54,898 bases of DNA from Nitrososphaeraceae archaeon (GTDB lineage: Archaea; Thermoproteota; Nitrososphaeria; Nitrososphaerales; Nitrososphaeraceae), in NCBI GenBank assembly GCA_044870765.1, contig JBIOZG010000022.1, positions 1 through 54,898 of the forward strand, in the 5' to 3' direction. The translations under genes and the position numbers were made by a program. The notes under the pieces are model-generated. The model was not told the origin of the DNA and ran no database searches. It saw only the letters and a program-made list of their open reading frames with translations. Shown here in pieces: positions 11,723-54,898 of this stretch (positions within the stretch are counted from its first letter, which is position 1; every line of letters begins with the position of its first letter).

Positions 11723-13855
11723 TCATTCTTCGGGAAGCTTTGAAATGCTCAACAGATCTTCAATATTTTCTTCGCTAACACCTTTTTTGGCTAATTCTCT
11801 TCTCAGTTTCTTCTTGTCCTTTATCTTTTGGGGAACATTTCTTGTATACTGCGTTATATAATCAATGAATTGTAAATCATCTATTATTGCATTGTTAAAC
11901 TCAGTACTGGAATTAACGGTTAAGGATTCATAGTGAGGATTTATTATTATTGAGTTTGTTAGCTCCGTATGCTTAAGATCTGCACCGCCAAGGTCGACTC
12001 CTACTAATCGGGCACCACCGAGATTAGCTCCTACTAATCGGGCACCACCGAGATTAGCTCCCATTAATTTGGCACCCACAAGATGCGCATCTCTCAGGTT
12101 AGCCCCCCAAAGACGAGTGCTTATTAGATTAGCCCCCCAAAGACGTGCTCCCACTAGATCGGCACCACCAAGATTGGTGCCTACCAGTCTGGCTCCGCTC
12201 AAATTCGCTCCCATTAGATCTGCTCCGCTCAAATTCGCTCCCATTAGATCCGCTCCATCAAGATCTGCTCCGCTCAAATTCGCTCCCATTAGATCCGCAT
12301 CCCTTAGATCCGCATCCCTTAGATCCGCATCCCTTAGATCCGCATCCCTTAGATCCGCATCCCTTAGATCCGCATCCCTTAGATCCGCATCTCTAATTGA
12401 TAAAATCTTATATTCTATCGCTCTCTTGTCATTGAATTCATTAATCTTTCCACTCTGCAGTAACTTTACTGCTTCATAGTTTACAGTTTTTCCAGGGATG
12501 CCAGTAGGTTCAATAGCCACTTCTATTGCACGACTGTATATGCTCCAATCGCGTATGTTTCTTAAAGTATTTGAATTTTTTACCAAAAAATCCCACAAAT
12601 CCGAATCTGATTTAAAATCTCGCAACACCTTCCATACTTTCGTATCAATTTCATCTTTTTTTTCTTCGTACAAGTCCAAACTTTTAAGACGAGTCTCGTC
12701 ATCCATCTTGAGATATTTATCTAGTCCTCTAAAGAAAGATTCATCGGATTTTACTAATATATTATAAAACTTATTCCATCGTAAATGCACAGCTTGTACT
12801 ACTAGTAATTCCTTTGCTTCAAAATTTTTCTTACCTGAAAAAATGAATTCCTTTGCTTCAAAATTTTTCTTACCTGAAAAAATCTCACAAGCCACAAAAA
12901 AGTTGTTCAAGAATCTTTTAATTTCTCTAGGATTATTATCTATTGCAACTGAAATTAGTTCTATATTCTTGTCTACAACATCTTTGAATTTATCATGAAT
13001 CATACCTTTTTTTATGAGATCCTTTACTAATCTGACGATGTCTTGGTTACTCCATTTAGGTAAAGTTATTGGTACTTGGATCAACTTCTTAATGTAGCGT
13101 TCTCCATCAATGCTAGATTCGCTATTTCCAACTTTGCTGAACTTGACTATCATATCATGGCTTAATCCTATTACGTAAATAAAACCCTCAATATCATGAA
13201 ATACTCTTATCATCTCTAATATTTCAAAAGCTTTCCCTGGAGAACATTTGTCCAAATCGTCAACAAAAATAACAATCCTAAAAGCAGGATTATCTTTTCG
13301 CAGATTCTTTATCTCCTTATTTATTTCCCTAAAACCATCAAAGTAGATTGAATCCCTATCTAATTCTGCAATTAATTGAATCTTCGAGTTTAGCTCTTTC
13401 TTGAATGTATTTATCATTTCGTGGGAAATTTCATCCTCTTCTGACGCGTACTTTGATATAATAGATGTAAGAATATCCGGAGTTCTCTTCAGAAAATTTA
13501 TTGCACTTGTTTCTAATTTCTGCTTTAAATTTTCAAATTCTTTGTCAGCAGGTAACGTATAAGCTATATTTTTTAATAATGAAACCAGCGGAAACATTTC
13601 CCTTTTGTACCGTGACGCTTCGAGTCTTATTTTGACTAAGTCCCTGTCAGTTTGAAGGGCTTTATCAACAGAATTAATTAAAGTTGACTTTCCAGTCCCC
13701 CAATCACCAAATACTCCGATACTAAATTTCGGATGAGAGTTTTTTATAATATTGACAATGGCATTAGAGTATAAATTAAAATCAAGGATTGGATCAATCA
13801 CCGTGTCGTCTGTTAAGATTAATCCGCTTTGAACCAGTTCACCCTCTCTAGACAA
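11723..13855 (-). CDS. KAP family P-loop NTPase fused to a C-terminal pentapeptide repeat domain
   Basis: Walker A GDWGTGKST, Walker B IVIFVDDLDKC, YIKKLIQVPITLP, NNPREIKRFLN, then about 30 A(D/N)Lxx repeats. Confidence 0.9.
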   Translation of the reverse strand: MSREGELVQSGLILTDDTVIDPILDFNLYSNAIVNIIKNSHPKFSIGVFGDWGTGKSTLINSVDKALQTDRDLVKIRLEASRYKREMFPLVSLLKNIAYTLPADKEFENLKQKLETSAINFLKRTPDILTSIISKYASEEDEISHEMINTFKKELNSKIQLIAELDRDSIYFDGFREINKEIKNLRKDNPAFRIVIFVDDLDKCSPGKAFEILEMIRVFHDIEGFIYVIGLSHDMIVKFSKVGNSESSIDGERYIKKLIQVPITLPKWSNQDIVRLVKDLIKKGMIHDKFKDVVDKNIELISVAIDNNPREIKRFLNNFFVACEIFSGKKNFEAKEFIFSGKKNFEAKELLVVQAVHLRWNKFYNILVKSDESFFRGLDKYLKMDDETRLKSLDLYEEKKDEIDTKVWKVLRDFKSDSDLWDFLVKNSNTLRNIRDWSIYSRAIEVAIEPTGIPGKTVNYEAVKLLQSGKINEFNDKRAIEYKILSIRDADLRDADLRDADLRDADLRDADLRDADLRDADLMGANLSGADLDGADLMGANLSGADLMGANLSGARLVGTNLGGADLVGARLWGANLISTRLWGANLRDAHLVGAKLMGANLGGARLVGANLGGARLVGVDLGGADLKHTELTNSIIINPHYESLTVNSSTEFNNAIIDDLQFIDYITQYTRNVPQKIKDKKKLRRELAKKGVSEENIEDLLSISKLPEE
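12291..12391. repeat. 15-bp coding minisatellite AGATCCGCATCCCTT x6 plus a partial copy
   Basis: Perfect tandem copies encoding (ADLRD)n on the minus strand. Confidence 0.97.
12807..12883. repeat. In-frame 39-bp tandem duplication inside the KAP NTPase gene
   Basis: 38-bp identical copies at 12807-12844 and 12846-12883; protein reads IFSGKKNFEAKE twice. Confidence 0.97.
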
Positions 13856-15088: not shown

Positions 15089-16129
15089 CTAGGTTTTCTT
15101 CTTGCTCATTTCAAATTTCCAACTCCTCTTATAATTTTCATCCCGAAGATTGAATCCTTTAAAAAGCTTAAAGTACGCTTCCTTAATCACCTTTTGATTA
15201 TCAATATCCGATTGAATCCAGAGAAATTCAAAGATGGATAACAGGGAGTTGAGCTTGATTTCATTATTGGAATATACGCTTAACCCTTTCGCACCTTCTA
15301 GGTTTCTACTAAAATTGAAATCTGGGGAAATGTCAAGAAATGTCCTTCTATCAAATATCATTGTTGTCATTCTTGTTTGTAAGGGTTTTTGTAAGTATTG
15401 AACAGAGATATTGGGGAAGTTATCATGAAATGAATCTCTTATTTCATCCTTAACTTTCTTGTTCTCACAATAGACTATTGTCCTTACCCTTATGCCATTC
15501 TTTGAAGCCTCTTCCAATAAATTCAATATACCTAATTTCTTTGAATGAATCAAAACTTGAAATTCTGAAAATAGAACCAATATTTCATCTATTGATGACG
15601 TGATAGATTTCCTTATGATATTGCGTATCTCGTATGACTTGGAAACATTTTTTGTAAAAGATTTTTCTTTATCATATTCGAATTCTTTAATTTTCTCTTT
15701 GTAAGGCAACGCAATACTCCACAACGAATTAAATAGGAACTGCTGAGCAGACACGAATGATTTATCAGAAATGCGTAATAATCTTCTCCTATCGTTATTC
15801 TTCTTAAGAAACATCACAAATTCTGCGTCGTCTATGAGCATGATATTGGATGCGATTTTATCAAAATGCCTAATCTCAAAATAGTTTAGAAAGCCTCTAT
15901 ATAATGAAGCCTGTTTCACACCTATATTGGAAATCATTCTTAATTTCAATCCCTTCTTTTTAAGATCAAGAAATTTTAGTGATAGGCCATTAGACTCAAC
16001 GTAGCTCAAAAATTCACTGGCAAGAAAACAGTCAATACCTGCTGTTGCCCTAGACATAGTCTGTAATGTAATTTTCGCAATGGAGCTGGACGCCACACTA
16101 ATTTCATTACTAGCAGGGTTACGTGACAA
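15089..16129 (-). CDS. Tandem TrmB/PLD-like sensory domain protein without a kinase domain
   Basis: Two repeats (KGLKLRMI..EIRH..QQFLFNSLW; NGIRVRTI..TMIFDR..SIFEFLW) like thaumarchaeal sensor-kinase N-termini. Confidence 0.6.
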   Translation of the reverse strand: MSRNPASNEISVASSSIAKITLQTMSRATAGIDCFLASEFLSYVESNGLSLKFLDLKKKGLKLRMISNIGVKQASLYRGFLNYFEIRHFDKIASNIMLIDDAEFVMFLKKNNDRRRLLRISDKSFVSAQQFLFNSLWSIALPYKEKIKEFEYDKEKSFTKNVSKSYEIRNIIRKSITSSIDEILVLFSEFQVLIHSKKLGILNLLEEASKNGIRVRTIVYCENKKVKDEIRDSFHDNFPNISVQYLQKPLQTRMTTMIFDRRTFLDISPDFNFSRNLEGAKGLSVYSNNEIKLNSLLSIFEFLWIQSDIDNQKVIKEAYFKLFKGFNLRDENYKRSWKFEMSKKKT

Positions 16130-17824: not shown

Positions 17825-18280
17825 TTATTGTGTTTTATTTAGAACTAAATTATTTGTTAACGAATTTGATAATGGTGAAGTTTTATTCAAATCCGTAAAT
17901 AGAACAATAGTGGTGATTGATTGAAGTGTACTGTTTGGTAAACTGGTAACAAATTGCTGGAAACCAGCCTTATCAACTTTGAATCCATTTGGAATTGAGG
18001 TAGTTTTAATTAAAGTCCCATTCGATGTGTATATTTTCATTGTTGCACTGATTTGCTTACCTACTGTGGCAGGATCAGAAACTAAATATGTAGTAGTTAA
18101 TTTAATTTGCTGGACGTTCTTGCCTGGCGGTAAATAAAATTGACCATCACCTAACTTCAGTAGTATCTCTTTTCCATGATTTGCAAATAGTGGTTGGTGT
18201 ACAATTGAAAGAATAAATATGCTAATCACAACAAACAGGACAGTATTTCTGTAGTTTCTTGTTTTCTTATTCCAACCCAT
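17825..18280 (-). CDS. Exported hypothetical protein
   Basis: Signal-peptide-like N-terminus and beta-rich body. Confidence 0.75.
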   Translation of the reverse strand: MGWNKKTRNYRNTVLFVVISIFILSIVHQPLFANHGKEILLKLGDGQFYLPPGKNVQQIKLTTTYLVSDPATVGKQISATMKIYTSNGTLIKTTSIPNGFKVDKAGFQQFVTSLPNSTLQSITTIVLFTDLNKTSPLSNSLTNNLVLNKTQ

Positions 18281-19637: not shown

Positions 19638-20693
19638 CTACTTCTGACCTAGAACTGTGTAATATTCCTTAATATCTTCAAATGCCTTTATTTTATCTTT
19701 TATCTGAATAGTCTCTAAGTTGAATTTTTCTAGAATTTTTTCTTTTGTATATTGTGAAATAACTATTTGGTCGGATTCAGCTATTCCTTCCAACCTACTT
19801 GCCAAGTTCACATGTGTTCCTATTACAGTGAACTGATCCCTTTCTTGGCTTCCCATGAGCCCAACTAAAACCGAACCTGTGTTAATACCGCATTTTATTT
19901 CTATTCTTATATCAGAATTAGTAACCGTCTTCCATATATCCAGCCAATTTCGCTTAAAAATCTGGAATGCCTGCTTCAGCTTTAGGGCGGCAAGAAGCGC
20001 ATTAGAAGCTCCAATTGAACCATCATCTTCTTGTTCTTTGAATCCAAAATATGCAAGTATCCCATCTCCAATGAATTTATCTATAATTCCGCCGTATTCG
20101 TGTATTATAGGCACCGCCACACCCAAGTATTCATTGAGAAAAACGGCTATCAGCTCTGGATGGTCTCTGAAGATCTCTGTTAATTTTGAAAAGTTAGTAA
20201 TATCCCAAAAAACAATGGTCAGAACTCTATTCTGGATCAGTGTTGCATAAGGATCGCTTAGATACTCAATAATTGCAGGATCTAGCTGTCTCTGAAGGCG
20301 AGTTAATATTTTTTGATTTGCGTTGTCAGATATGAACAAGTTCATGTCCTCTAAGAATTTGGATTTGTCCTGTTCTGTCATTTGGTCCTCTGGTATGGGA
20401 AATATTGCTATCACTCCTCTCTCAGAAGGATGTATAGAACAATAGTATGGTATGCTCTGCTGATTACTATCAATCTTGACGGAAGTTGATTCCCCTGGCA
20501 ACATACTGCCAGTCTGAAAAAAGGGACTTTGCAAAGAGGAGTTTGCATCCCCCGAAATCAAGTTATGTACTTTTGTATCCCGATTAATCCAAGTTATGGA
20601 ATCGCCTTTGACTATCTTGACAATCCTTGGTTCAAAATACATTATTTCAGTAGTATTCTCTTTAAAACTAGGAATAACCACAAATTGTTTCAA
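19638..20693 (-). CDS. Cupredoxin-class III adenylate/guanylate cyclase fusion
   Basis: N-terminal FEP..VKGDSITWIN.D..HNLISG...YYCSIHP; C-terminal FWDITNFS, DKFIGDG, FTVIGTHVNLASRLE. Confidence 0.9.
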   Translation of the reverse strand: MKQFVVIPSFKENTTEIMYFEPRIVKIVKGDSITWINRDTKVHNLISGDANSSLQSPFFQTGSMLPGESTSVKIDSNQQSIPYYCSIHPSERGVIAIFPIPEDQMTEQDKSKFLEDMNLFISDNANQKILTRLQRQLDPAIIEYLSDPYATLIQNRVLTIVFWDITNFSKLTEIFRDHPELIAVFLNEYLGVAVPIIHEYGGIIDKFIGDGILAYFGFKEQEDDGSIGASNALLAALKLKQAFQIFKRNWLDIWKTVTNSDIRIEIKCGINTGSVLVGLMGSQERDQFTVIGTHVNLASRLEGIAESDQIVISQYTKEKILEKFNLETIQIKDKIKAFEDIKEYYTVLGQK

Positions 20694-20848
20694 TCAATCG
20701 TAAATAATTATGAGGGAATATAACCTTACGTACTTCATACCTTGTTTTAGCTTCACAGTTTTACTTGGTGTATAATAGATATGTTATGCGAATCTGAATA
20801 TTGTTAACCAAGAAAGACATTAATTAAGGTTCTAGAGCTTAACAAATA

Positions 20849-20995
20849 ATGGAAGGCATTCAAAAATTAAAGTGTAGTTCCTGTGGGATTACATTTATGT
20901 CTGAAAATAATAGTCCACTTTGTCCAACATGTTCTGAGAATTCTACTGCTCATCATCACGGAGAAGAACATGGTTGTGGCTGTGGTGGTCACTGA
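20849..20995 (+). CDS. 48-aa zinc-ribbon microprotein with His/Cys-rich tail (not in ORF track)
   Basis: Manual translation MEGIQKLKCSSCGITFMSENNSPLCPTCSENSTAHHHGEEHGCGCGGH*, followed by a T-run. Confidence 0.85.
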   Translation: MEGIQKLKCSSCGITFMSENNSPLCPTCSENSTAHHHGEEHGCGCGGH

Positions 20996-21207: not shown

Positions 21208-21615
21208 TTAAACTACGACAATTTCTAACTCGTCATAAGAGTCTTTTACCGAAAGTTCAACCAAAGTATCTTCATAGATTAATAACCAATCTCTTATACC
21301 AATTACAGGAAGCTTTCTAACAAATATTTTGCCGGTTTGGATCAAATTTGCCCTTATGTATGCAAATCGTAAAGGATCTTGATTTTCAGGATTCTTAATC
21401 TTAAAGAGGCTACCCTGAAGTTCGATCCCTGGTCGGCCCCCCTGTATGTTGAGTGTAACGTTTTCAGCGAATCTGTTTTGTATTTTTGCTGTAACATAAC
21501 TTTGTCCGATTTCAAATTGGTGAATATTCAGCAATACTTGAGACCTTACATTTGGAGCTTTTGGTAACTCGCGAAACAATCCTTCAGATATATTATCAAA
21601 GAACAACCCAATCAT
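21208..21615 (-). CDS. Hypothetical protein
   Basis: 135-aa ORF with natural composition; longest of the overlapping frames. Confidence 0.7.
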   Translation of the reverse strand: MIGLFFDNISEGLFRELPKAPNVRSQVLLNIHQFEIGQSYVTAKIQNRFAENVTLNIQGGRPGIELQGSLFKIKNPENQDPLRFAYIRANLIQTGKIFVRKLPVIGIRDWLLIYEDTLVELSVKDSYDELEIVVV

Positions 21616-22567: not shown

Positions 22568-23311
22568 TTGTATCGGAAATTTTATTTAGAGAGAGTACTT
22601 AACCTAACCATATTGCATTATTGGGTAGGATCATTTTGTCGTATCACAGATAAGAAACAGCGAACACCAATATTTCCTGCAGGGGCAACAGCAGCATCAG
22701 ACGTCATCAAAATAGTAGCTGATTTAGGAAACCAAATACCTGACAAATCCTGGATGCTCTACCTGTTGGAGTTATTTACAATCCACAATGTGCCAATTGA
22801 ATTGAACCTTATCTGTCAGTTTGACAATCAGGACTACTTTGAAGCAATATTTCAAGGTGTCAATAGATATAGGTTTACAAAAGTATTACCAATTATTGAA
22901 CATTCATACCTACGGATGTTGGTGCTGGACAAAATAAATAAACAAATTAAATATTCTATCACTGATCAAATCACAGGAATATCAGAAACCTTTAATTTTT
23001 CACTCGGTTCTATGAACTTTGATTATATTGCGGGAAATCAGTTTTCGGGGATTGAGTGGTGGAATAAGATGGGAAACTTTCCCTACTCAATCAGGTATAA
23101 AGTAGAGCTATCTCAACTTATGGTTGGTTTTATAGATAAGGATGACCCAGAATCAGTTACTTTCATTCCACATGACTCGTTGATACCAAATAAAGATAAC
23201 TCTGGAACAGCTTATCCGATAACATTTCAAAATATAATGTTAAGAGATGGTTGTGTATGTTATTCAATCCAATCAGGTAAATGTAATACTGGAATTCATT
23301 ACAGTATTTAA
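22568..23311 (+). CDS. Hypothetical protein
   Basis: 247-aa ORF, beta-rich, no family recognised. Confidence 0.7.
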   Translation: MYRKFYLERVLNLTILHYWVGSFCRITDKKQRTPIFPAGATAASDVIKIVADLGNQIPDKSWMLYLLELFTIHNVPIELNLICQFDNQDYFEAIFQGVNRYRFTKVLPIIEHSYLRMLVLDKINKQIKYSITDQITGISETFNFSLGSMNFDYIAGNQFSGIEWWNKMGNFPYSIRYKVELSQLMVGFIDKDDPESVTFIPHDSLIPNKDNSGTAYPITFQNIMLRDGCVCYSIQSGKCNTGIHYSI

Positions 23312-30397: not shown

Positions 30398-33049
30398 TTG
30401 ACAAGTGAGCCCAAAGGTCGGATCAAAAATTACGACACAAATACAAAGTTAAGAAATTTTGTCGTGCAAAAACATGAAGCAAGACGATTACACTATGACC
30501 TTAGATTAGAGTCCGAAGATGGAGTTCTTAAATCGTGGGCCGTACCTAAAGGGCCTTCAATGGATCCTGAAATTAAGCGCTTAGCCATCATGGTAGAAGA
30601 TCATCCTTTTGACTACCTGCATTTTGAAGGAAGTATACCTGAAGGAAATTATGGGGCAGGAACAGTAATAGTTTGGGATACTGGCAGTTATAGTAGTGAT
30701 AGCCCACTTTCAGAGCAGATAAATAAAGGAAAAGTAACCGTTGAACTTTACGGAAACAAACTGAGGGGCTTATTCTATCTAATAAGGACTAAAAAAAACA
30801 ACCAATGGTTACTGATTAAGATTAAGGATCAGTATATATCAGCCGATGACATTACTTCAACGCAGCCCGAATCTGTCCTTACCGGAAGATCTAACTCGGA
30901 TATTGAATTTAAGCACAGATCTCAAAAGTCTAACAAGAGATATTCAGAAGATAAGATTATTACAAGCGCAAGTACTTCTATTAGTAATAAAAGCGAAATA
31001 GAATCCCTTTTCCAGAATATAAGACCAATGTTGGCTTCGCCTCTTGACAAAGCATTTAACAACAAAGATTGGGTCTTTGAAGTCAAGTGGGATGGAGTTA
31101 GAGCAATTTTATTCAAGGGAAAAAAAGGAATCAGGATCCAATCGAGAAATGGTAATGACATAACAAAAAGGTATCCTGAAATAGTAAATTCGGCAAGAAT
31201 TTCTCTTAGAGATTGTGGTTCCGTAATAGTTGACGGTGAAATCGTTGTCCTAAATGAGCAAGGACTTCCGGATTTTAACACTCACCAACATCGAATGAAT
31301 ATACAGGACCCTAATGAAATAATGGCACTTTCCGTAAAGTTTCCATCAACGTATTATGCTTTTGATATACTTTACAAAGATGACAAAAATGTAAAAGGAT
31401 TAGCATACTTGGACCGGAGACATTTGCTACTAAAAGCATTGAAAACTAATGACGCAATTAGAATATCTGATTATATCGAAGAAAAGGGAATTGAAATACT
31501 GAGAAAAAGTAACGAATTGAAATTGGAAGGCATCGTAGCCAAACACAAAACGAGCCTGTACCAGGAAGGCGTGAGATCTAAAGACTGGCTAAAGATAAAG
31601 AACACAAAAACTCAGGATTGTGTAATTATAGGCTATACAAAAGGGATGGGGAATAGAGTCAATTATTTTGGTTCATTAGTACTCGCAATATACTGTCCAA
31701 AAGAAAAGAAATTAAAGTTTGCCGGCCATGTAGGAACAGGATTTGATGACGAGATCCTTGGTGTGATACATTCTAAATTAAAAAATCTTGAGGCAGATAC
31801 CGTACCAGTAGACAAAGTTCCATATCTTAATAGGGAGACTAAATGGTTAAGACCCGTACTGATAGCAGAAGTTAAGTTTGGCGAATGGACTAAAGATGAC
31901 ATCCTTAGAGCGCCGGTTTTTTTACGATTTCGTGAAGATAAGAACGCCGAAGAATGTATTATCGAAGCGGATAATGTAACTAAGGATCGTTCCGAATTAG
32001 ATAATGAAGTAGAAACTAGAAAAAATAGGAATGCTAGGAAAAAAGGTATCAATTGTACTGGTATCGACAAGATGAAGGTTACAAACCCAGACAAGATTTA
32101 TTGGAAGGCGACGAAAGATCATCAGCCAATATTAAAAAGAGATTTAATAGAATATTATGAAAAAATAAGTGACTATATACTGCCTCATTTGAGGGATAGG
32201 CCGCTTTCTTTAAGCAGATATCCTAATGGAATTTACGGCAAGTCCTTCTATCAGAAGGATTGGAACCAAAAAAAACCAAATTTTGTTTCTACGGCCAAAG
32301 TTCATTCTGAACATAAGGGCAATATCATCAATTATATCATATGCAATAACATCGAGACCCTTTTGTGGATTACTAACTTGGGTTGTATAGAAATGCATCC
32401 TTGGTACAGTAGGATTAAGGATTTTGAGAGCTGTAATAGTTCTACTTTGTTGTACGAAGAAAAATGTGGTTTGAATTTTCCGGATTTTATTGTCTTTGAT
32501 CTTGATCCGTATATTTACTCTGGTAAAGAAAAAAAAGGGCAAGAGCCAGAATACAATATTCCTGGTTTTAAAGCGGCAGTTGATATTGCTCATGAACTCA
32601 ACCACATACTCAGCGAGCTAAAGATAAGGTCATATTTGAAAACATCTGGAAAATCAGGATTGCATATTTATGTTCCTATTTCAAATATATATTCCTATGA
32701 GCAGACAAAAAGTTTCGCCGAAGTTATAGCCAAAATGATTATTTCAAAATTTCCAAAAAAGGTAACATTAGAGTGGAGCACTTTAAAGAGGAAGGGAAAA
32801 ATATTCTTTGACTATAATCAAAATGCCAGAGGCAAAACGATTGCCTCAGTATTTTCCTTGAGACCGACTCTAAATGCAACCGTTTCGATGCCCATAGAAT
32901 GGAAAAAATTAGATTCTAGCTTTCCAACAGATTTCACGATTTCCTCCGCACCTGAAATCATAAGAAAAAATAATGACTACTGGCAAAATGTTCTATCTGA
33001 TAAACAAGATTTGAGAAAAATAATTTCTCAGGTTGACGAACTTCTGTGA
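30398..33049 (+). CDS. ligD: NHEJ DNA ligase D (phosphoesterase-ligase-polymerase)
   Basis: PE domain FVVQKH..RLHYDLRLE..SWAVPKGP..VEDHP; ligase EVKWDGVR and EGIVAK; polymerase FDLDP, KTSGKSGLHI, DYNQN. Confidence 0.95.
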   Translation: MTSEPKGRIKNYDTNTKLRNFVVQKHEARRLHYDLRLESEDGVLKSWAVPKGPSMDPEIKRLAIMVEDHPFDYLHFEGSIPEGNYGAGTVIVWDTGSYSSDSPLSEQINKGKVTVELYGNKLRGLFYLIRTKKNNQWLLIKIKDQYISADDITSTQPESVLTGRSNSDIEFKHRSQKSNKRYSEDKIITSASTSISNKSEIESLFQNIRPMLASPLDKAFNNKDWVFEVKWDGVRAILFKGKKGIRIQSRNGNDITKRYPEIVNSARISLRDCGSVIVDGEIVVLNEQGLPDFNTHQHRMNIQDPNEIMALSVKFPSTYYAFDILYKDDKNVKGLAYLDRRHLLLKALKTNDAIRISDYIEEKGIEILRKSNELKLEGIVAKHKTSLYQEGVRSKDWLKIKNTKTQDCVIIGYTKGMGNRVNYFGSLVLAIYCPKEKKLKFAGHVGTGFDDEILGVIHSKLKNLEADTVPVDKVPYLNRETKWLRPVLIAEVKFGEWTKDDILRAPVFLRFREDKNAEECIIEADNVTKDRSELDNEVETRKNRNARKKGINCTGIDKMKVTNPDKIYWKATKDHQPILKRDLIEYYEKISDYILPHLRDRPLSLSRYPNGIYGKSFYQKDWNQKKPNFVSTAKVHSEHKGNIINYIICNNIETLLWITNLGCIEMHPWYSRIKDFESCNSSTLLYEEKCGLNFPDFIVFDLDPYIYSGKEKKGQEPEYNIPGFKAAVDIAHELNHILSELKIRSYLKTSGKSGLHIYVPISNIYSYEQTKSFAEVIAKMIISKFPKKVTLEWSTLKRKGKIFFDYNQNARGKTIASVFSLRPTLNATVSMPIEWKKLDSSFPTDFTISSAPEIIRKNNDYWQNVLSDKQDLRKIISQVDELL

Positions 33050-51317: not shown

Positions 51318-52175
51318 ATGGGACATGCAACAATCGAATGGGTTTACGTTGGTGTTGTTATAGCCTTGCTTACGTGGGTGGGAGCCGAATCTTGGAATGT
51401 TGAAAGGTTAGTTGAGCATGTTCCAGCCGAAGCAGAAACAATCAAGGTAATCGGTCAGCAATGGTTTTGGACCTTTGAACATGAGGATGGTAAGAAGGAG
51501 ACAGGCCAGCTTCATGTAAAACAAGGAGTTCCGTACAAATTTGAGATTGTTTCAAAGGATGTTATTCATGATTTTAATGTGCCAGATTATACAATATTGA
51601 TGGACGCAGTTCCTGGAAGGGTAAATGTGGTCTGGAATCTTTTTGACGAGCCTGGCGAGTTTCCAATTCAATGCAGGGAATATTGCGGATTCGGTCACGC
51701 AACTATGAGAGGAAAATTATTTGTCGAACCACAAACTGCAGAAGCTGCTGAAAAACCAGCTGCAGGTCAAAATGCTACCACAGCACCAGCACCGGCACCA
51801 GCTCAAGGTCAAAATGCTACTACAGCTGCAGGTCAAAATGCTACTACATCTCAAGCACCCACTGCAGCAGGTCCACCTGGAGCCGCCTTGACAATATTAG
51901 AAGGATCTTCAGTACAAGGAAGTCCTGACTTTGATCCAGATACACTTACAGTAAAGAAAGGCGACAAGATAACAGTAACCAACAAAGATACTTTGCCACA
52001 TACTGTTACAAGTGGAACAGGACCAACCGATCCGAATAGCGCAAAACAATTTGATACAAGCATTATAGAACCTGGAGCAACAGCAGACATTGAGACTACC
52101 AACCTAACACCCGGAGACTATCCATTCCATTGTGCTGTTCATCCATACATGACAGGAAAACTTGTGGTACAGTAG
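51318..52175 (+). CDS. coxB: Heme-copper oxidase subunit II (CuA) with fused C-terminal blue-copper domain
   Basis: GQQWFW, DVIH, CREYCGFGHATM (CuA); A/P/T linker; PHTVTSG...FHCAVHPYM (type 1 Cu). Confidence 0.92.
   Translation: MGHATIEWVYVGVVIALLTWVGAESWNVERLVEHVPAEAETIKVIGQQWFWTFEHEDGKKETGQLHVKQGVPYKFEIVSKDVIHDFNVPDYTILMDAVPGRVNVVWNLFDEPGEFPIQCREYCGFGHATMRGKLFVEPQTAEAAEKPAAGQNATTAPAPAPAQGQNATTAAGQNATTSQAPTAAGPPGAALTILEGSSVQGSPDFDPDTLTVKKGDKITVTNKDTLPHTVTSGTGPTDPNSAKQFDTSIIEPGATADIETTNLTPGDYPFHCAVHPYMTGKLVVQ
51851..52175 (+). repeat. 325-bp direct repeat, copy 1
   Basis: 17 mismatches by hand count versus 54071-54395. Confidence 0.95.
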
Positions 52176-52279
52176 TTTAGCCATGACATATTATATTTCC
52201 ACTTCTGATAAAAACAGCCAAAATACTTTTATTGATAGAATGTTTGAAATAAGTTCAACTAAAAGAGGTAGTTAGAAAA

Positions 52280-53806
52280 TTGGTTTTAGAAGTTAAACAA
52301 CCACGTCCTATGTGGGAGATATTATTTTCCACGCATCATACTGATATTGGCTTGTTGTACATGATATCCTCAATAACAGCATTGATGCTCGGTGGGGCAC
52401 TTGCACTTGCCTTACGTGCAGAACTTTTCCTTCCCGGTTTACAAATTATACAGGATCCTACATCTTTTAACAGATTCTTTACCGTTCATGGGACCACAAT
52501 GCTCTTTTTGTGGGCTATTCCATTTGCTGCTGGTGTAGGAAATTACCTTATTCCACTCATGGTAAGGTACAAAGATATGGCATGGCCCAAACTAAACGCT
52601 GTTGCCTTTTGGATGATTCCTGTAGGGGCCGCTTTGGTATGGCTCGGATTCTCTGATACTGGTTGGACAGCTTATCCGCCATATTCTATTATAAGGGCAC
52701 CTGGTCCGGCCGCCGAAATGTGGATCTTTGGTTTAAAGATATTAGGAATATCATCGATACTTGGTTCGATTAACTTTATTGTGACAATTCTAAAGTGCAG
52801 ACATCCTGACTTGTCTATCATGAAGATGTCTCTTTTCGCATGGTCTATACTTTCAATATCATTCATGACAATAGTTGCAGTGCCAACATTTGCAGCATCC
52901 TTAATTATGCTTTATACAGATAGGCTTGGCATCTCAGGGTTCTTCAACCCAGCTATGGGTGGAGATCCAATTGCTTATCAGCACCTTTTCTGGTTTACAT
53001 TCCATCCGGAGGTATACATATTCTTGCTGCCAGCTGTGGGCATGCTATATGAAATAATACCCAAGTTCTCCAGAAAACCGCTGTTCAGCTATCAGTCTGG
53101 GGTCGCGGCTTTCGTGTTACTTGCATTAATAGGGTTCGCATCATGGGCACACCATATGTTTGCAACCGGCATGAGCTTCACAGAAAAAACAGTATTTATG
53201 GTAGGAACGTTGGCTGCCGTCCCGGCCTCATCAATGCATGTATTTAACTGGATTGCAACAATGTGGGGAGGCAGGATAAAGTTTGGAGCGCCAATGCTAT
53301 TTGGAGTAGGTGGAATCATGTTGTTCTTTGCTTCAGGAGCTGGTGGAGTAGTAAATACAGCACTACCACTTGATTTCATTACTCACGATAGTTACTGGGT
53401 TGTAGGTCACTTCCATCTTATACTGATGGGAACAGTCTCACTCACATTCACCGGATTCATATACTATTTGTTCCCATTGATCACAGGTAGAATGTATAAT
53501 GAAAGGGCAGCACAGGTACACTTTGTGTTGGCATTTGTCGGTGTAATCTTTGTCTTTATGACTCAGCATTTGTTAGGATTGCACGGTATGCCTAGAAGAG
53601 TAGCAGACTATGACGGAACCATACCAGGATGGCTTATAATGAATCAGATTGCAACGATAGGCGCATGGGTGGCTGGCTGGTCTTATGTTATCATGCTGGT
53701 TAACTTGATAAAATCTGCAGGAAGAGGCAAAGAAGCAGATGTAAAAGATCCGTTCCAAATTGGAGAAGAATATTATGACTACACACGACGAGAGCCCCAT
53801 CACTAG
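52280..53806 (+). CDS. coxA: Heme-copper oxidase subunit I (A-type)
   Basis: HGTTM, DMAWPKLN, HPEVY, WAHHMF, HFH and GMPRR motifs. Confidence 0.97.
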   Translation: MVLEVKQPRPMWEILFSTHHTDIGLLYMISSITALMLGGALALALRAELFLPGLQIIQDPTSFNRFFTVHGTTMLFLWAIPFAAGVGNYLIPLMVRYKDMAWPKLNAVAFWMIPVGAALVWLGFSDTGWTAYPPYSIIRAPGPAAEMWIFGLKILGISSILGSINFIVTILKCRHPDLSIMKMSLFAWSILSISFMTIVAVPTFAASLIMLYTDRLGISGFFNPAMGGDPIAYQHLFWFTFHPEVYIFLLPAVGMLYEIIPKFSRKPLFSYQSGVAAFVLLALIGFASWAHHMFATGMSFTEKTVFMVGTLAAVPASSMHVFNWIATMWGGRIKFGAPMLFGVGGIMLFFASGAGGVVNTALPLDFITHDSYWVVGHFHLILMGTVSLTFTGFIYYLFPLITGRMYNERAAQVHFVLAFVGVIFVFMTQHLLGLHGMPRRVADYDGTIPGWLIMNQIATIGAWVAGWSYVIMLVNLIKSAGRGKEADVKDPFQIGEEYYDYTRREPHH

Positions 53807-54395
53807 AACTAGTTCTAAGAGGATGGCCAAAGGCATCCTCATAGTAGTAATTACCCTAGCTTTTGGCGCTGCCATTATAGTACCTTTCTGGCAGACCATG
53901 ATTCATCATCCGCCAGTAGCATCAACACTCAAACACGAAGAAGCTCCACCCATAGCTACTGGTACTCAAACTAGTATCGGGACAGTTGATGGAGTTACAA
54001 AACAGCAGCAAAAAAGTAGTGCAAACGCAAATGCTACTGCCGGCAATCAGACTTCCACAGCAGCACCGGCTCAAGCACCCACTGCAGCAGGTCCACCCGG
54101 AACCCCATTGACAATACTACAAGGATCTTCAGTACAAGGAAGTCCTGACTTTGATCCAGATACACTTACAGTAAAGAAAGGCGACAAGATAACAGTAACT
54201 AACAAAGATACTTTGCCACATACTGTTACAAGTGGAACAGGACCAACTGATCCGAATAGCGCAAAACAATTTGATACAAGCATTATAGAACCTGGAGCAA
54301 CAGCAGACATTGAGACTACCAACATTACTCCCGGAAACTATCCATTCCATTGTGCTATCCATCCATACATGACTGGAAAAGTTGTAGTACAGTAG
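53775..54395 (+). CDS. Membrane-anchored blue (type 1) copper protein
   Basis: TM helix, low-complexity linker, PHTVTSG...FHCAIHPYMTG. Confidence 0.9.
   Translation: MTTHDESPITRTSSKRMAKGILIVVITLAFGAAIIVPFWQTMIHHPPVASTLKHEEAPPIATGTQTSIGTVDGVTKQQQKSSANANATAGNQTSTAAPAQAPTAAGPPGTPLTILQGSSVQGSPDFDPDTLTVKKGDKITVTNKDTLPHTVTSGTGPTDPNSAKQFDTSIIEPGATADIETTNITPGNYPFHCAIHPYMTGKVVVQ
54071..54395 (+). repeat. 325-bp direct repeat, copy 2
   Basis: Offset exactly 2220 bp from copy 1, no indels. Confidence 0.95.
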
Positions 54396-54464
54396 TCATG
54401 AAATTAAAAGTCGGATTCAATCCATAAAAGGCATGATAATAGTCCAGCAATAGTATTATATGAA

Positions 54465-54898
54465 ATGCTCCTGACAAGACTTTCCTTTTCTACATTATCC
54501 ATATTATTTGCCCTAATCTTTATCGGAGGTTACGTTAGTTCGTCTGGAGTGGGACTGAGCTGTCCTGAATGGCCCTTATGTCCTGCAGGTCTTGTGCCAA
54601 TGAGAGATTTTATTATTGAATATTTTCATAGAACTGTTGCTGCTACCACCGGCATAATGGTATTTGTAACCATGTTTTTTACTTTAAGATCACAGGAAAC
54701 TAAAAGAAGTACAAAAATTGCATCAATAATTGCAGCAGCATTAGTAGTGGCCCAAATTACTCTGGGGGCGTTTGTAATAGTTGAAAAATTACACGCGGTA
54801 CTTGTAACTATGCACCTGGGAATGGGATTAATTCTATTTATTATGATACTTACGATAACGCTAGACACACATCAACTTTCAAAAAGCCGGTTGCAAAA
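54465..54898 (+). CDS. ctaA: Heme A synthase COX15/CtaA family (runs off window end; not in ORF track)
   Basis: Manual translation MLLTRLSF...IGGYVSSSGVGLSCPEWPLC...IEYFHR...QITLGA...H. Confidence 0.88.
   Translation, partial: MLLTRLSFSTLSILFALIFIGGYVSSSGVGLSCPEWPLCPAGLVPMRDFIIEYFHRTVAATTGIMVFVTMFFTLRSQETKRSTKIASIIAAALVVAQITLGAFVIVEKLHAVLVTMHLGMGLILFIMILTITLDTHQLSKSRLQ

Follow-up and report, generated by a model that had tools for sequence, protein, structure and literature searches.

A conserved fusion of a cupredoxin-like domain to a predicted class III adenylate cyclase in Nitrososphaeraceae, with glutamate in the place of the axial methionine

Class III nucleotidyl cyclases borrow many sensor domains. 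In the photoactivated adenylyl cyclases bPAC and OaPAC (5m2a, 4yus), an N-terminal sensor of ~100 amino acids (aa), a flavin BLUF module that reads light, is joined through a paired helical linker to a class III cyclase, giving a chain of ~350 aa that forms a homodimer. REC-cyclases, such as the bacterial protein WP_207338747.1 of Fibrella aquatilis, carry a regulatory domain in the same N-terminal slot and take phosphorylation as their input, and CyaC (1wc0/1wc1) and CyaB (3r5g) have other regulatory modules. Cupredoxins are extracytoplasmic electron carriers, with minimal change on redox cycling. Here we describe a gene that joins a cupredoxin-like domain to a class III cyclase, located at positions 19638 to 20693 on the minus strand of a 54,898-nucleotide (nt) stretch of DNA from a Nitrososphaeraceae archaeon, an ammonia oxidizer of soil (contig JBIOZG010000022.1, assembly GCA_044870765.1), which was analyzed at its full length and is called the window below. 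Its product matches bPAC and OaPAC in order of domains, length, linker, and predicted homodimer, with a cupredoxin in place of the BLUF sensor. As far as literature searches reach, the fusion belongs with the sensor-linked class III cyclases, and its putative sensor has no precedent among them. We read it as a metal-center-gated, soluble, one-component adenylate cyclase, a proposal to which we give a probability of about 0.5.

The gene and its predicted functional elements are laid out as follows.

19638..20693, minus strand: whole gene, 351 aa plus stop, encoding the cupredoxin, the linker, and the class III cyclase
20400..20693, minus strand: cupredoxin domain, residues 1-98 (PF00127; eight-stranded beta-sandwich)
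20235..20399, minus strand: helical linker, residues 99-153 (from AlphaFold2 helices and conservation)
19641..20234, minus strand: class III (IIIb-type) nucleotidyl cyclase catalytic domain, residues 154-351 (PF00211)
20565..20567, minus strand: codon of His43, predicted N-terminal copper ligand (aligned to His43 of Nmar_1307)
20421..20441, minus strand: ligand loop Cys85-x2-His88-x2-Glu91, codons TGT...CAT...GAG (from alignment)
20202..20204, minus strand: Asp164, first metal Asp, in FWD (CyaC/CyaB alignment)
20064..20078, minus strand: within DKFIGD, from Lys206, substrate defining, to Asp210, second metal Asp (CyaC/CyaB alignment)
19827..19829, minus strand: Thr289, second substrate-defining residue (matches the Thr of CyaC 'ftaig' and CyaB 'ytiig')
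19794..19808, minus strand: within VNLASR, the transition-state pair Asn296...Arg300 (CyaC/CyaB alignment)
20717..20723, minus strand: TTATATT, candidate TATA-like box ~27 nt upstream of the TTG start (read by eye)

Both halves of the protein are recognized by Pfam, as PF00127 (Copper-bind) over residues 15 to 91 (E 2.4e-7, 31.5 bits, cut-off 21.2) and as PF00211 (Guanylate_cyc) over residues 158 to 328 (E 2.1e-16, 60.5 bits, cut-off 21.9). The AlphaFold2 model of the full-length fusion has a mean predicted local distance difference test score (pLDDT) of 83.5 and a predicted template modeling score (pTM) of 0.62. Every motif quoted in the initial annotation of this DNA (VHNL, YYCSIHPSE, FWD, DKF, IGD, FTV, and VNLASR) was found in the translation, and the helical linker that it proposed appears in the model as helices between both domains.

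The N-terminal domain is modeled with strands at residues 3-7, 18-28, 32-37, 43-48, 55-64, 69-73, 80-85, and 91-98. The NCBIfam equivalogs for plastocyanin, amicyanin, and pseudoazurin score 26.3, 20.9, and 17.7 bits and fail their cut-offs of 87.85, 110.2, and 109.85 by far, so the domain is a divergent cupredoxin and none of those named carriers. Compared with PDB sequences, residues 1 to 101 retrieve 5fc9 first (E 2.1e-7), followed by 9cck, the C-terminal cupredoxin of a Nitrosopumilus multicopper protein, and then by amicyanins and plastocyanins. When the domain is modeled alone (mean pLDDT 73.4, residues 1 to 20 below 50), Foldseek again places 5fc9 at the top (E 5e-7, TM 0.71/0.76, 26% identity), with amicyanins next, and the top fold matches are cupredoxins only.

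The structure 5FC9 is Nmar_1307, the purple cupredoxin of Nitrosopumilus maritimus, in which, according to a passage of PMC12998224, the copper has His43, Cys83, and His86 as its ligands in a trigonal plane. H43, C85, and H88 of the fusion are in register with these crystallographic ligands. The E91 column of the sequence alignment contains Met in 1sfd, Gln in 2idt, Lys in 3rym, and Arg in Nmar_1307, and since 2idt and 3rym are named among the fold matches as the amicyanin mutants M98Q and M98K, E91 is the counterpart of the axial Met98 of amicyanin. Alignment to Nmar_1307 and amicyanin thus bears out the proposal that the fusion keeps His and Cys/His (H43, C85, H88) with Glu (E91) where the axial Met is expected. 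The comparison made with the cupredoxins of the oxidase cluster in the same window also holds, as these have the Met loops CAVHPYM (51318-52175) and CAIHPYM (53760-54395). Set beside the features of type 1 copper proteins, the domain reaches the PF00127 threshold and has the beta-sandwich and the His/Cys/His set, and it lacks the axial Met and, by prediction, the extracytoplasmic location.

The ligand loop of the fusion is of the short amicyanin type, Cys-x2-His-x2-X-Arg-Gly, which it shares with amicyanin itself (1aac, 2idt, 3rym; fold TM ~0.6). Amicyanin is a periplasmic electron carrier with an axial Met98, whereas the fusion has Glu at this position, is predicted to be cytoplasmic, and is joined to a cyclase. 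Nmar_1307 is like the fusion in having no axial Met and in coming from an ammonia-oxidizing archaeon, but it is a free-standing chain of 95 residues. As a precedent for an axial Glu we considered M121E azurin; the protein described in PMC8915257 is a C112D/M121E double mutant, and the example was therefore not used.

Its predicted cellular location separates the fusion from typical cupredoxins. Its open reading frame (ORF) opens with a TTG at 20693, and an in-frame TGA stands immediately 5' of this codon, which makes a longer N terminus impossible and leaves no room for a leader. An alternative start is the GTG at 20681, residue 5; database copies begin at residue 1 or 5 and never upstream, the ESM Atlas copy beginning at residue 5, and the TTG codon also opens the gene in all five close loci from other genomes introduced below. 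The true start may be the GTG, and the leader is absent with either. Besides the TATA-like box listed above, a further A/T-rich stretch (20702-20712, also read by eye) precedes the GTG by ~27 nt, and both stand at the promoter-to-start spacing expected for archaeal promoters. Either element is a candidate promoter that would imply a leaderless mRNA.

In a Kyte-Doolittle scan with 19-residue windows, the fusion peaks at residue 179, within the cyclase fold, with a value of 1.50, and its N-terminal region does not exceed 0.32. No hydrophobic window of at least 1.6 was present in any of 14 family representatives (maximum 1.50), in contrast to the oxidase-cluster cupredoxins of the window, whose hydrophobic N-terminal segments reach 1.71 and 2.66. 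The stop codon abutting the start and these hydrophobicity values agree with the earlier call of no signal peptide and no transmembrane segment. With no leader, no membrane segment between the domains, and a cyclase that needs ATP, the whole protein is predicted to be cytoplasmic.

To place the fusion among its relatives, we drew on searches of two depths. A word-indexed search gave 2891 proteins at E ≤ 0.001 among 4641 candidates, of which the best 120 were inspected; these are 83 to 87% identical, 348 to 353 aa long, and found on contigs of up to 997 kb. Precomputed annotation gives both Pfam domains for 117 of the 120 and PF00211 alone for the other 3, and every one has the axial Glu, the His43 motif, and the full set of cyclase motifs. 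Their named sources are all Nitrososphaeraceae or Nitrososphaerota, with labels that include proteins of Thermoproteota metagenome-assembled genomes (MAGs). The ESM Atlas contains three clusters (112, 50, and 50 members) automatically named for both domains, with Nitrososphaerota as the commonest known phylum. A scan of genome contigs for the gene yielded five close loci and one distant locus, L006. The five close loci are in separate genomes, with an intact gene at 94 to 97% identity and the same synteny. Measured against these five, the ratio of nonsynonymous to synonymous substitution rates (dN/dS) is 0.05 to 0.10 in the cupredoxin, 0.04 to 0.13 in the linker, and 0.05 to 0.09 in the cyclase, which indicates purifying selection.

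These data bear on the trivial explanation that the fusion is an assembly chimera or a decaying pseudogene. No support for it was found. In L006 (6001-7165), from a distant Nitrososphaerales MAG with 39% identity, a cupredoxin of 138 aa and a cyclase of 241 aa are encoded by two ORFs that differ in frame and are separated by 22 nt, with each half recognized by Pfam. This two-ORF form may be a genuine split or the product of a frameshift in long reads, and the ligand loop there is ambiguous, reading as Cys-x2-His-x2-Met or, given a five-residue insertion, as Glu ended. The 117 two-domain homologs among the best 120, on many contigs, together with the five intact genomes, the dN/dS of ~0.05 to 0.1, and the three ESM Atlas clusters, rule the explanation out, leaving it a negligible probability, and with it the unique chimeric assembly that the initial annotation had named as a risk.

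An exhaustive search of 1.84 billion representatives at 50% identity returned 63,268 sequences at E ≤ 0.001 and 103 at E ≤ 1e-30. Among 151 sequences (the query, its own cluster representative, and 149 other best representatives), the N-terminal domain was matched in 19, a count that includes the query. A diverse alignment of 17 sequences, comprising the query, 13 full-length representatives, and 3 fragments at ~28 to 85% identity to the query, has N37, D39, H43, Y83, C85, H88, and G93 invariant in all 17. The axial residue is Glu in 15 of them, whereas P0164 has Gln and P0138 has His. Across the 154 stored fusions, taken as those with a ligand loop N-terminal to a cyclase motif, the counts are Glu 151, His 1, Gln 1, and Tyr 1, the Tyr case probably being a spurious pattern match, and Met is absent at this position in all 154. 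As these alignments have it, Glu at the axial position is a signature of the family.

Some family members are larger. P0130, P0131, P0134, P0135, P0138, and P0164 (454 to 629 aa) have an extra N-terminal region, in which a hydrophobicity scan found no leader. In P0138, the member with His at the sensor axial position, a further cupredoxin of the canonical Met type stands at the N terminus, and P0130, P0134, and P0164 have weak, subthreshold matches to MG2. The same N-terminal domain was also sought in proteins of 616 to 2000 aa, where none of 27 candidates scored, which is weak evidence.

The catalytic half is closest among solved structures to CyaC of S. platensis (E 3.4e-25) and CyaB of P. 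aeruginosa (E 1.8e-23), with Cya2 (2w01) also matched, and Foldseek superposes the full-length model on CyaB with a TM of 0.92 on the target and a root mean square deviation of 1.8 Å. At ~30% identity, CyaC and CyaB have the same metal Asp pair, Lys/Thr, and Asn/Arg as the fusion (D164/D210, K206/T289, and N296/R300) and the same head-to-tail homodimer as predicted for it, and differ in their regulatory modules. In an alignment of 36 family sequences, conservation of each of the six residues is 90% or higher, and the claim of an intact class III cyclase is upheld in full. The Lys with Thr, the latter in the place of Asp, is presumably the ATP-type pair that we take as the hallmark of subclass IIIb.

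A homodimer model gives a median interaction prediction score from aligned errors (ipSAE) of 0.69 (runs of 0.67, 0.69, and 0.72) and passes, the best of three controls being 0.00. Contact agreement is 74% or more, and the partner pLDDT does not fall below 78. In calibration, 20 of 30 solved homo-pairs reached the mark, as did 1 of 23 single chains, figures that hold roughly given the custom alignment, and since solved class III cyclase dimers exist, the pass may stem from likeness to them. The interface combines a head-to-tail cyclase contact, residues 206 to 210 of one chain against 285 to 296 of the other, with symmetric pairing of the linkers over residues 125 to 155 (133 with 133). From the alignment and the model, the fusion is predicted to be a homodimeric class IIIb adenylate cyclase, with cyclic AMP (cAMP) as its product.

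A different product was considered, as the catalytic domain is matched by the PADLOC models for PycC (best E 1.2e-22, 78.6 bits), which would make the fusion an anti-phage enzyme of the Pycsar type that produces a pyrimidine cyclic nucleotide. PycC models are class III homologs, however, and would match any such domain, and the solved cytidylate cyclase 8jsf scores E 8.9e-4 against E 3.4e-25 for CyaC. The Lys/Thr pair is of the type that we assign to ATP, the gene shares a conserved synteny with housekeeping genes, Pfam finds no domain that binds cyclic nucleoside monophosphates (cNMPs) near it, and none of seven nearby proteins matches an effector model, six being without any PADLOC match and the seventh being a KAP NTPase. 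We regard a Pycsar function as very improbable.

Between the two domains, the model has helices at residues 107-121, 125-136, 139-145, and 148-151. The ligand loop, residues 85 to 91, leads straight into the last strand, 91 to 98, and from there into a conserved helix cap (acidic-x-M-T/S-x-x-E-K/R), immediately after that strand, and the linker helices. Just before the cyclase, a near-invariant L133 is followed by a D-P segment, which may correspond to the 'cyclase transducer element' of class IIIa/b enzymes. In cyclase relatives of the same length, homology begins at about residue 125. Of 39 such relatives scanned, 35 have an N-terminal REC domain (E ≤ 0.01, a few under the Pfam gathering score); one of the remaining four is a PAS fusion and three are without an N-terminal Pfam domain. 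REC-cyclases are the nearest relatives of this length, and BLUF-linker-cyclases align with the fusion model over ~290 to 380 columns in Foldseek. As REC and BLUF modules occupy the N-terminal slot in related enzymes, the cupredoxin sits where regulatory sensors sit.

How the fusion arose was approached through a tree of the cyclase domain, for which 134 of 151 rows were kept, the 17 dropped having no match or covering fewer than 165 residues of the query domain. Twelve of the 14 cupredoxin rows fall within a 51-row clade (94 by the Shimodaira-Hasegawa-like approximate likelihood ratio test, SH-aLRT), mixed with 39 rows without a recognizable N-terminal domain and with no REC rows, and P0138 (His) and P0164 (Gln) are placed apart, with one REC row. 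The cupredoxin label requires 12 changes on the tree against a mean of 13.5 for shuffled labels, a number that 49 of 500 shuffles match or undercut; this quick 134-row tree does not show that the fusion arose once. Free-standing close relatives of the N-terminal domain (55 to 177 aa) number just nine, of which one is labeled partial and several continue into the linker, and by their sequences they look like fragments of fusions. The clade also contains a 39-member cluster of stand-alone cyclases of ~253 aa that have the same pre-cyclase segment and no cupredoxin.

These stand-alone cyclases, with the same linker segment in the same clade, would fit a view in which the cupredoxin-like domain binds another metal, such as zinc, or none, and acts as a structural, dimerizing, or docking module while the cyclase is controlled otherwise, for example by bicarbonate. 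The best cyclase relatives, CyaC and CyaB, belong to a group responsive to bicarbonate, and a bicarbonate-soaked CyaC entry is among the fold matches; in addition, His2-Cys-Glu is plausible as a zinc site. What favors a working metal site instead is that the three copper ligands are invariant, and Glu near-invariant, at ~28 to 45% identity, a pattern with which zinc remains compatible. On balance we think this view unlikely.

The initial annotation had read the fusion as a one-component sensor that turns copper availability, redox state, or NO binding into cAMP, an interpretation that the present analysis supports in part. Under the proposal of metal-center gating, the N-terminal cupredoxin would set the activity of the cyclase. 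One metal ion, most likely copper, would occupy the His43-Cys85-His88 site, with Glu91 replacing the axial Met, and a change at the metal center would pass from loop 85-91 through strand 91-98 and the helix cap to the paired linker helix and on to the catalytic dimer. Continuity of the loop with the strand, cap, and linker helix suggests that such a change could be relayed to the active sites as it is in sensor-linker-cyclases. The input that we favor is the oxidation or ligation state of bound copper, and the output would be cAMP. From coordination chemistry, the hard carboxylate of Glu91 would be expected to bind Cu(II) and to release Cu(I), lowering the potential and giving a redox-linked movement of the sort that electron-transfer cupredoxins avoid and a sensor needs. 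This specific version, a redox or ligation switch of bound copper, is held tentatively, and we put it well short of an even chance.

The same ligand evidence, from alignment and invariance, serves equally for a sensor of copper supply, in which the apo and copper-loaded domains differ and the cyclase reports cytoplasmic copper. This would be a useful signal where energy metabolism depends on copper enzymes, and the window has both a copper-rich respiratory cluster, in which two cupredoxins of the Met type are anchored to the membrane, and, divergently upstream of the cyclase gene, a conserved small Cys/His-rich ORF (20849-20995). Replacement of a soft Met with a hard Glu is, however, the opposite of what coordination chemistry would lead one to expect of a Cu(I) sensor, and no copper transporter or chaperone gene adjoins the cyclase gene. 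We consider supply sensing an unlikely function of the fusion.

Nitric oxide (NO), an intermediate of archaeal ammonia oxidation, provides another possible input: NO could react at the copper site or its Cys and switch the cyclase, in a copper analog of the heme-based soluble guanylate cyclase. The nearest cupredoxin by both sequence and fold is Nmar_1307, a high-potential type 1 copper protein (+361 mV) whose copper signals are bleached by NO and for which NO oxidase activity is cited, as set out in a passage of PMC13746201. For nitrosocyanin of ammonia-oxidizing bacteria, the same passage gives a potential of +85 mV, a (His)2(Cys)(H2O)(Glu)Cu site, and a proposed function in NO oxidation, with a ligand make-up of two His, one Cys, and one Glu that is also the one predicted for the fusion (PMC13746201). 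The likeness to nitrosocyanin is limited to ligand composition, however; no nitrosocyanin is present among the PDB matches (E ≤ 10 by sequence, E ≤ 1 by profile) or among the top Foldseek matches considered. In nitrosocyanin, the red copper protein of the ammonia oxidizer Nitrosomonas europaea, another region of the fold supplies the Glu, and unlike the fusion, the protein carries no output domain. Nmar_1307, for its part, has Arg rather than Glu at the axial column. Although its NO and redox chemistry keeps the idea of NO and redox sensing alive, NO as the dedicated signal appears distinctly improbable. A broader form, a copper-based gas or redox receptor in which NO or another oxidant of ammonia oxidation acts at an open, cytoplasmic His2-Cys-Glu copper center and religation of Glu switches on cAMP, is likewise improbable, if worth keeping in view.

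Several observations weigh against gating by a metal center. At the site itself, a fragment cluster, P0296 (2 members), has Asp for His43 while keeping Cys85, His88, and Glu91; the Copper-bind score is modest (31.5 bits), and a cupredoxin Pfam model is matched at E ≤ 0.01 in just 6 of 16 diverse members with N-terminal coverage. The His2-Cys-Glu set would also suit Zn(II), and a carboxylate is a poor ligand for Cu(I), the form that copper takes in the cytoplasm. With respect to the relay, the cupredoxin lies outside the confident interface of the homodimer model, its placement against the cyclase is not fixed there, and linker residues 120 to 133 have pLDDT below 50. Two diverse members are without a key cyclase residue, P0131 with Lys replaced by Ser and P0124 with Asp210 replaced by Gly. 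In genomic terms, the neighbors (a major facilitator superfamily transporter, an unknown 135-aa ORF, and a DedA/VTT protein) give no functional hint, the synteny is visible in five near-identical genomes only, and no cNMP-binding domain was found by Pfam among the scanned window ORFs of at least 90 aa. Our estimate of about 0.5 for the metal-center-gated cyclase takes these points into account.

The surroundings of the gene include features of their own. The divergent ORF at 20849-20995 (plus strand) begins ~155 nt upstream of the cyclase start and encodes 48 aa, in which two Cys-x2-Cys pairs make up a zinc-ribbon pattern and the tail is rich in His, Cys, and Gly. The Pfam matches of this ORF are weak and subthreshold, to the zinc-ribbon region of HypA (E 0.0025); tblastn matched it in all five close loci over 40 to 48 of its 48 residues and gave no match in L006. 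By composition it could be a small metal-binding protein. The 135-aa ORF immediately upstream of the cyclase gene is 83 to 98% identical in all five close loci. Conserved neighbors at 21208-21615 (minus), 22568-23311 (plus), 17825-18280 (minus), and 15089-16129 (minus) have no Pfam family at E ≤ 0.001. Farther away, 11723-13855 (minus) encodes a 710-aa protein with a KAP-family P-loop NTPase and C-terminal pentapeptide repeats; it matches the PADLOC models QatA (E 1e-24), PifA, and PDC-S20 and may, judging from these, be defense related. An 883-aa LigD with its full set of three domains (phosphoesterase, ATP-dependent ligase, and primase-polymerase) is encoded at 30398-33049 (plus).

At the far end of the window, 51318-54896 (plus) is a terminal oxidase cluster typical of an ammonia-oxidizing archaeon, in the order COX2-cupredoxin fusion, COX1, second membrane-anchored cupredoxin, and the start of a CtaA-like gene. 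COX2 is joined to its C-terminal Met-type cupredoxin by a long low-complexity linker of Ala, Pro, Gln, and Thr, and the two near-identical cupredoxin domains of the cluster look, by sequence, like a recent duplication. The G+C content of the window is ~32 to 42%, and Rfam found two tRNAs in it and nothing else.

The initial annotation knew of no characterized protein with this architecture. A full-text literature search on archaea that paired class III cyclases with cupredoxin, plastocyanin, or blue copper returned no study of the fusion, and to this extent the statement stands; the architecture itself is already present in databases under automatic names, as JGI 'class 3 adenylate cyclase/plastocyanin' and as the ESM Atlas clusters named for both Pfam families. 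The literature comes close at two points. In a passage of PMC13577086, class III adenylate cyclases and proteins with a blue copper domain appear as separate entries among the clusters that Nitrososphaeraceae conserve, and PMC9289680, in the passage concerned, reports class 3 cyclases as enriched in sponge Thaumarchaeota, with no mention there of their domains.

The conservation of a cytoplasmic cupredoxin with a carboxylate in place of Met, joined to an enzyme that makes a second messenger, suggests that the fold has been turned into a sensor. For bioinorganic chemistry, the fusion is of value as a natural protein in which an amicyanin-type loop carries a predicted His2-Cys-Glu site. Ammonia-oxidizing archaea depend centrally on copper supply, NO, and redox balance, and to our knowledge, almost nothing is known of signal transduction in these organisms. 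As a small soluble protein, the fusion makes archaeal sensing and the role of cAMP directly testable. If the notion of a gas or redox receptor proved true, the protein would be an archaeal, copper-based counterpart of heme-based soluble guanylate cyclase and the first cupredoxin known as a signaling sensor rather than an electron carrier, and it would supply the first defined input to cAMP signaling in ammonia-oxidizing archaea.

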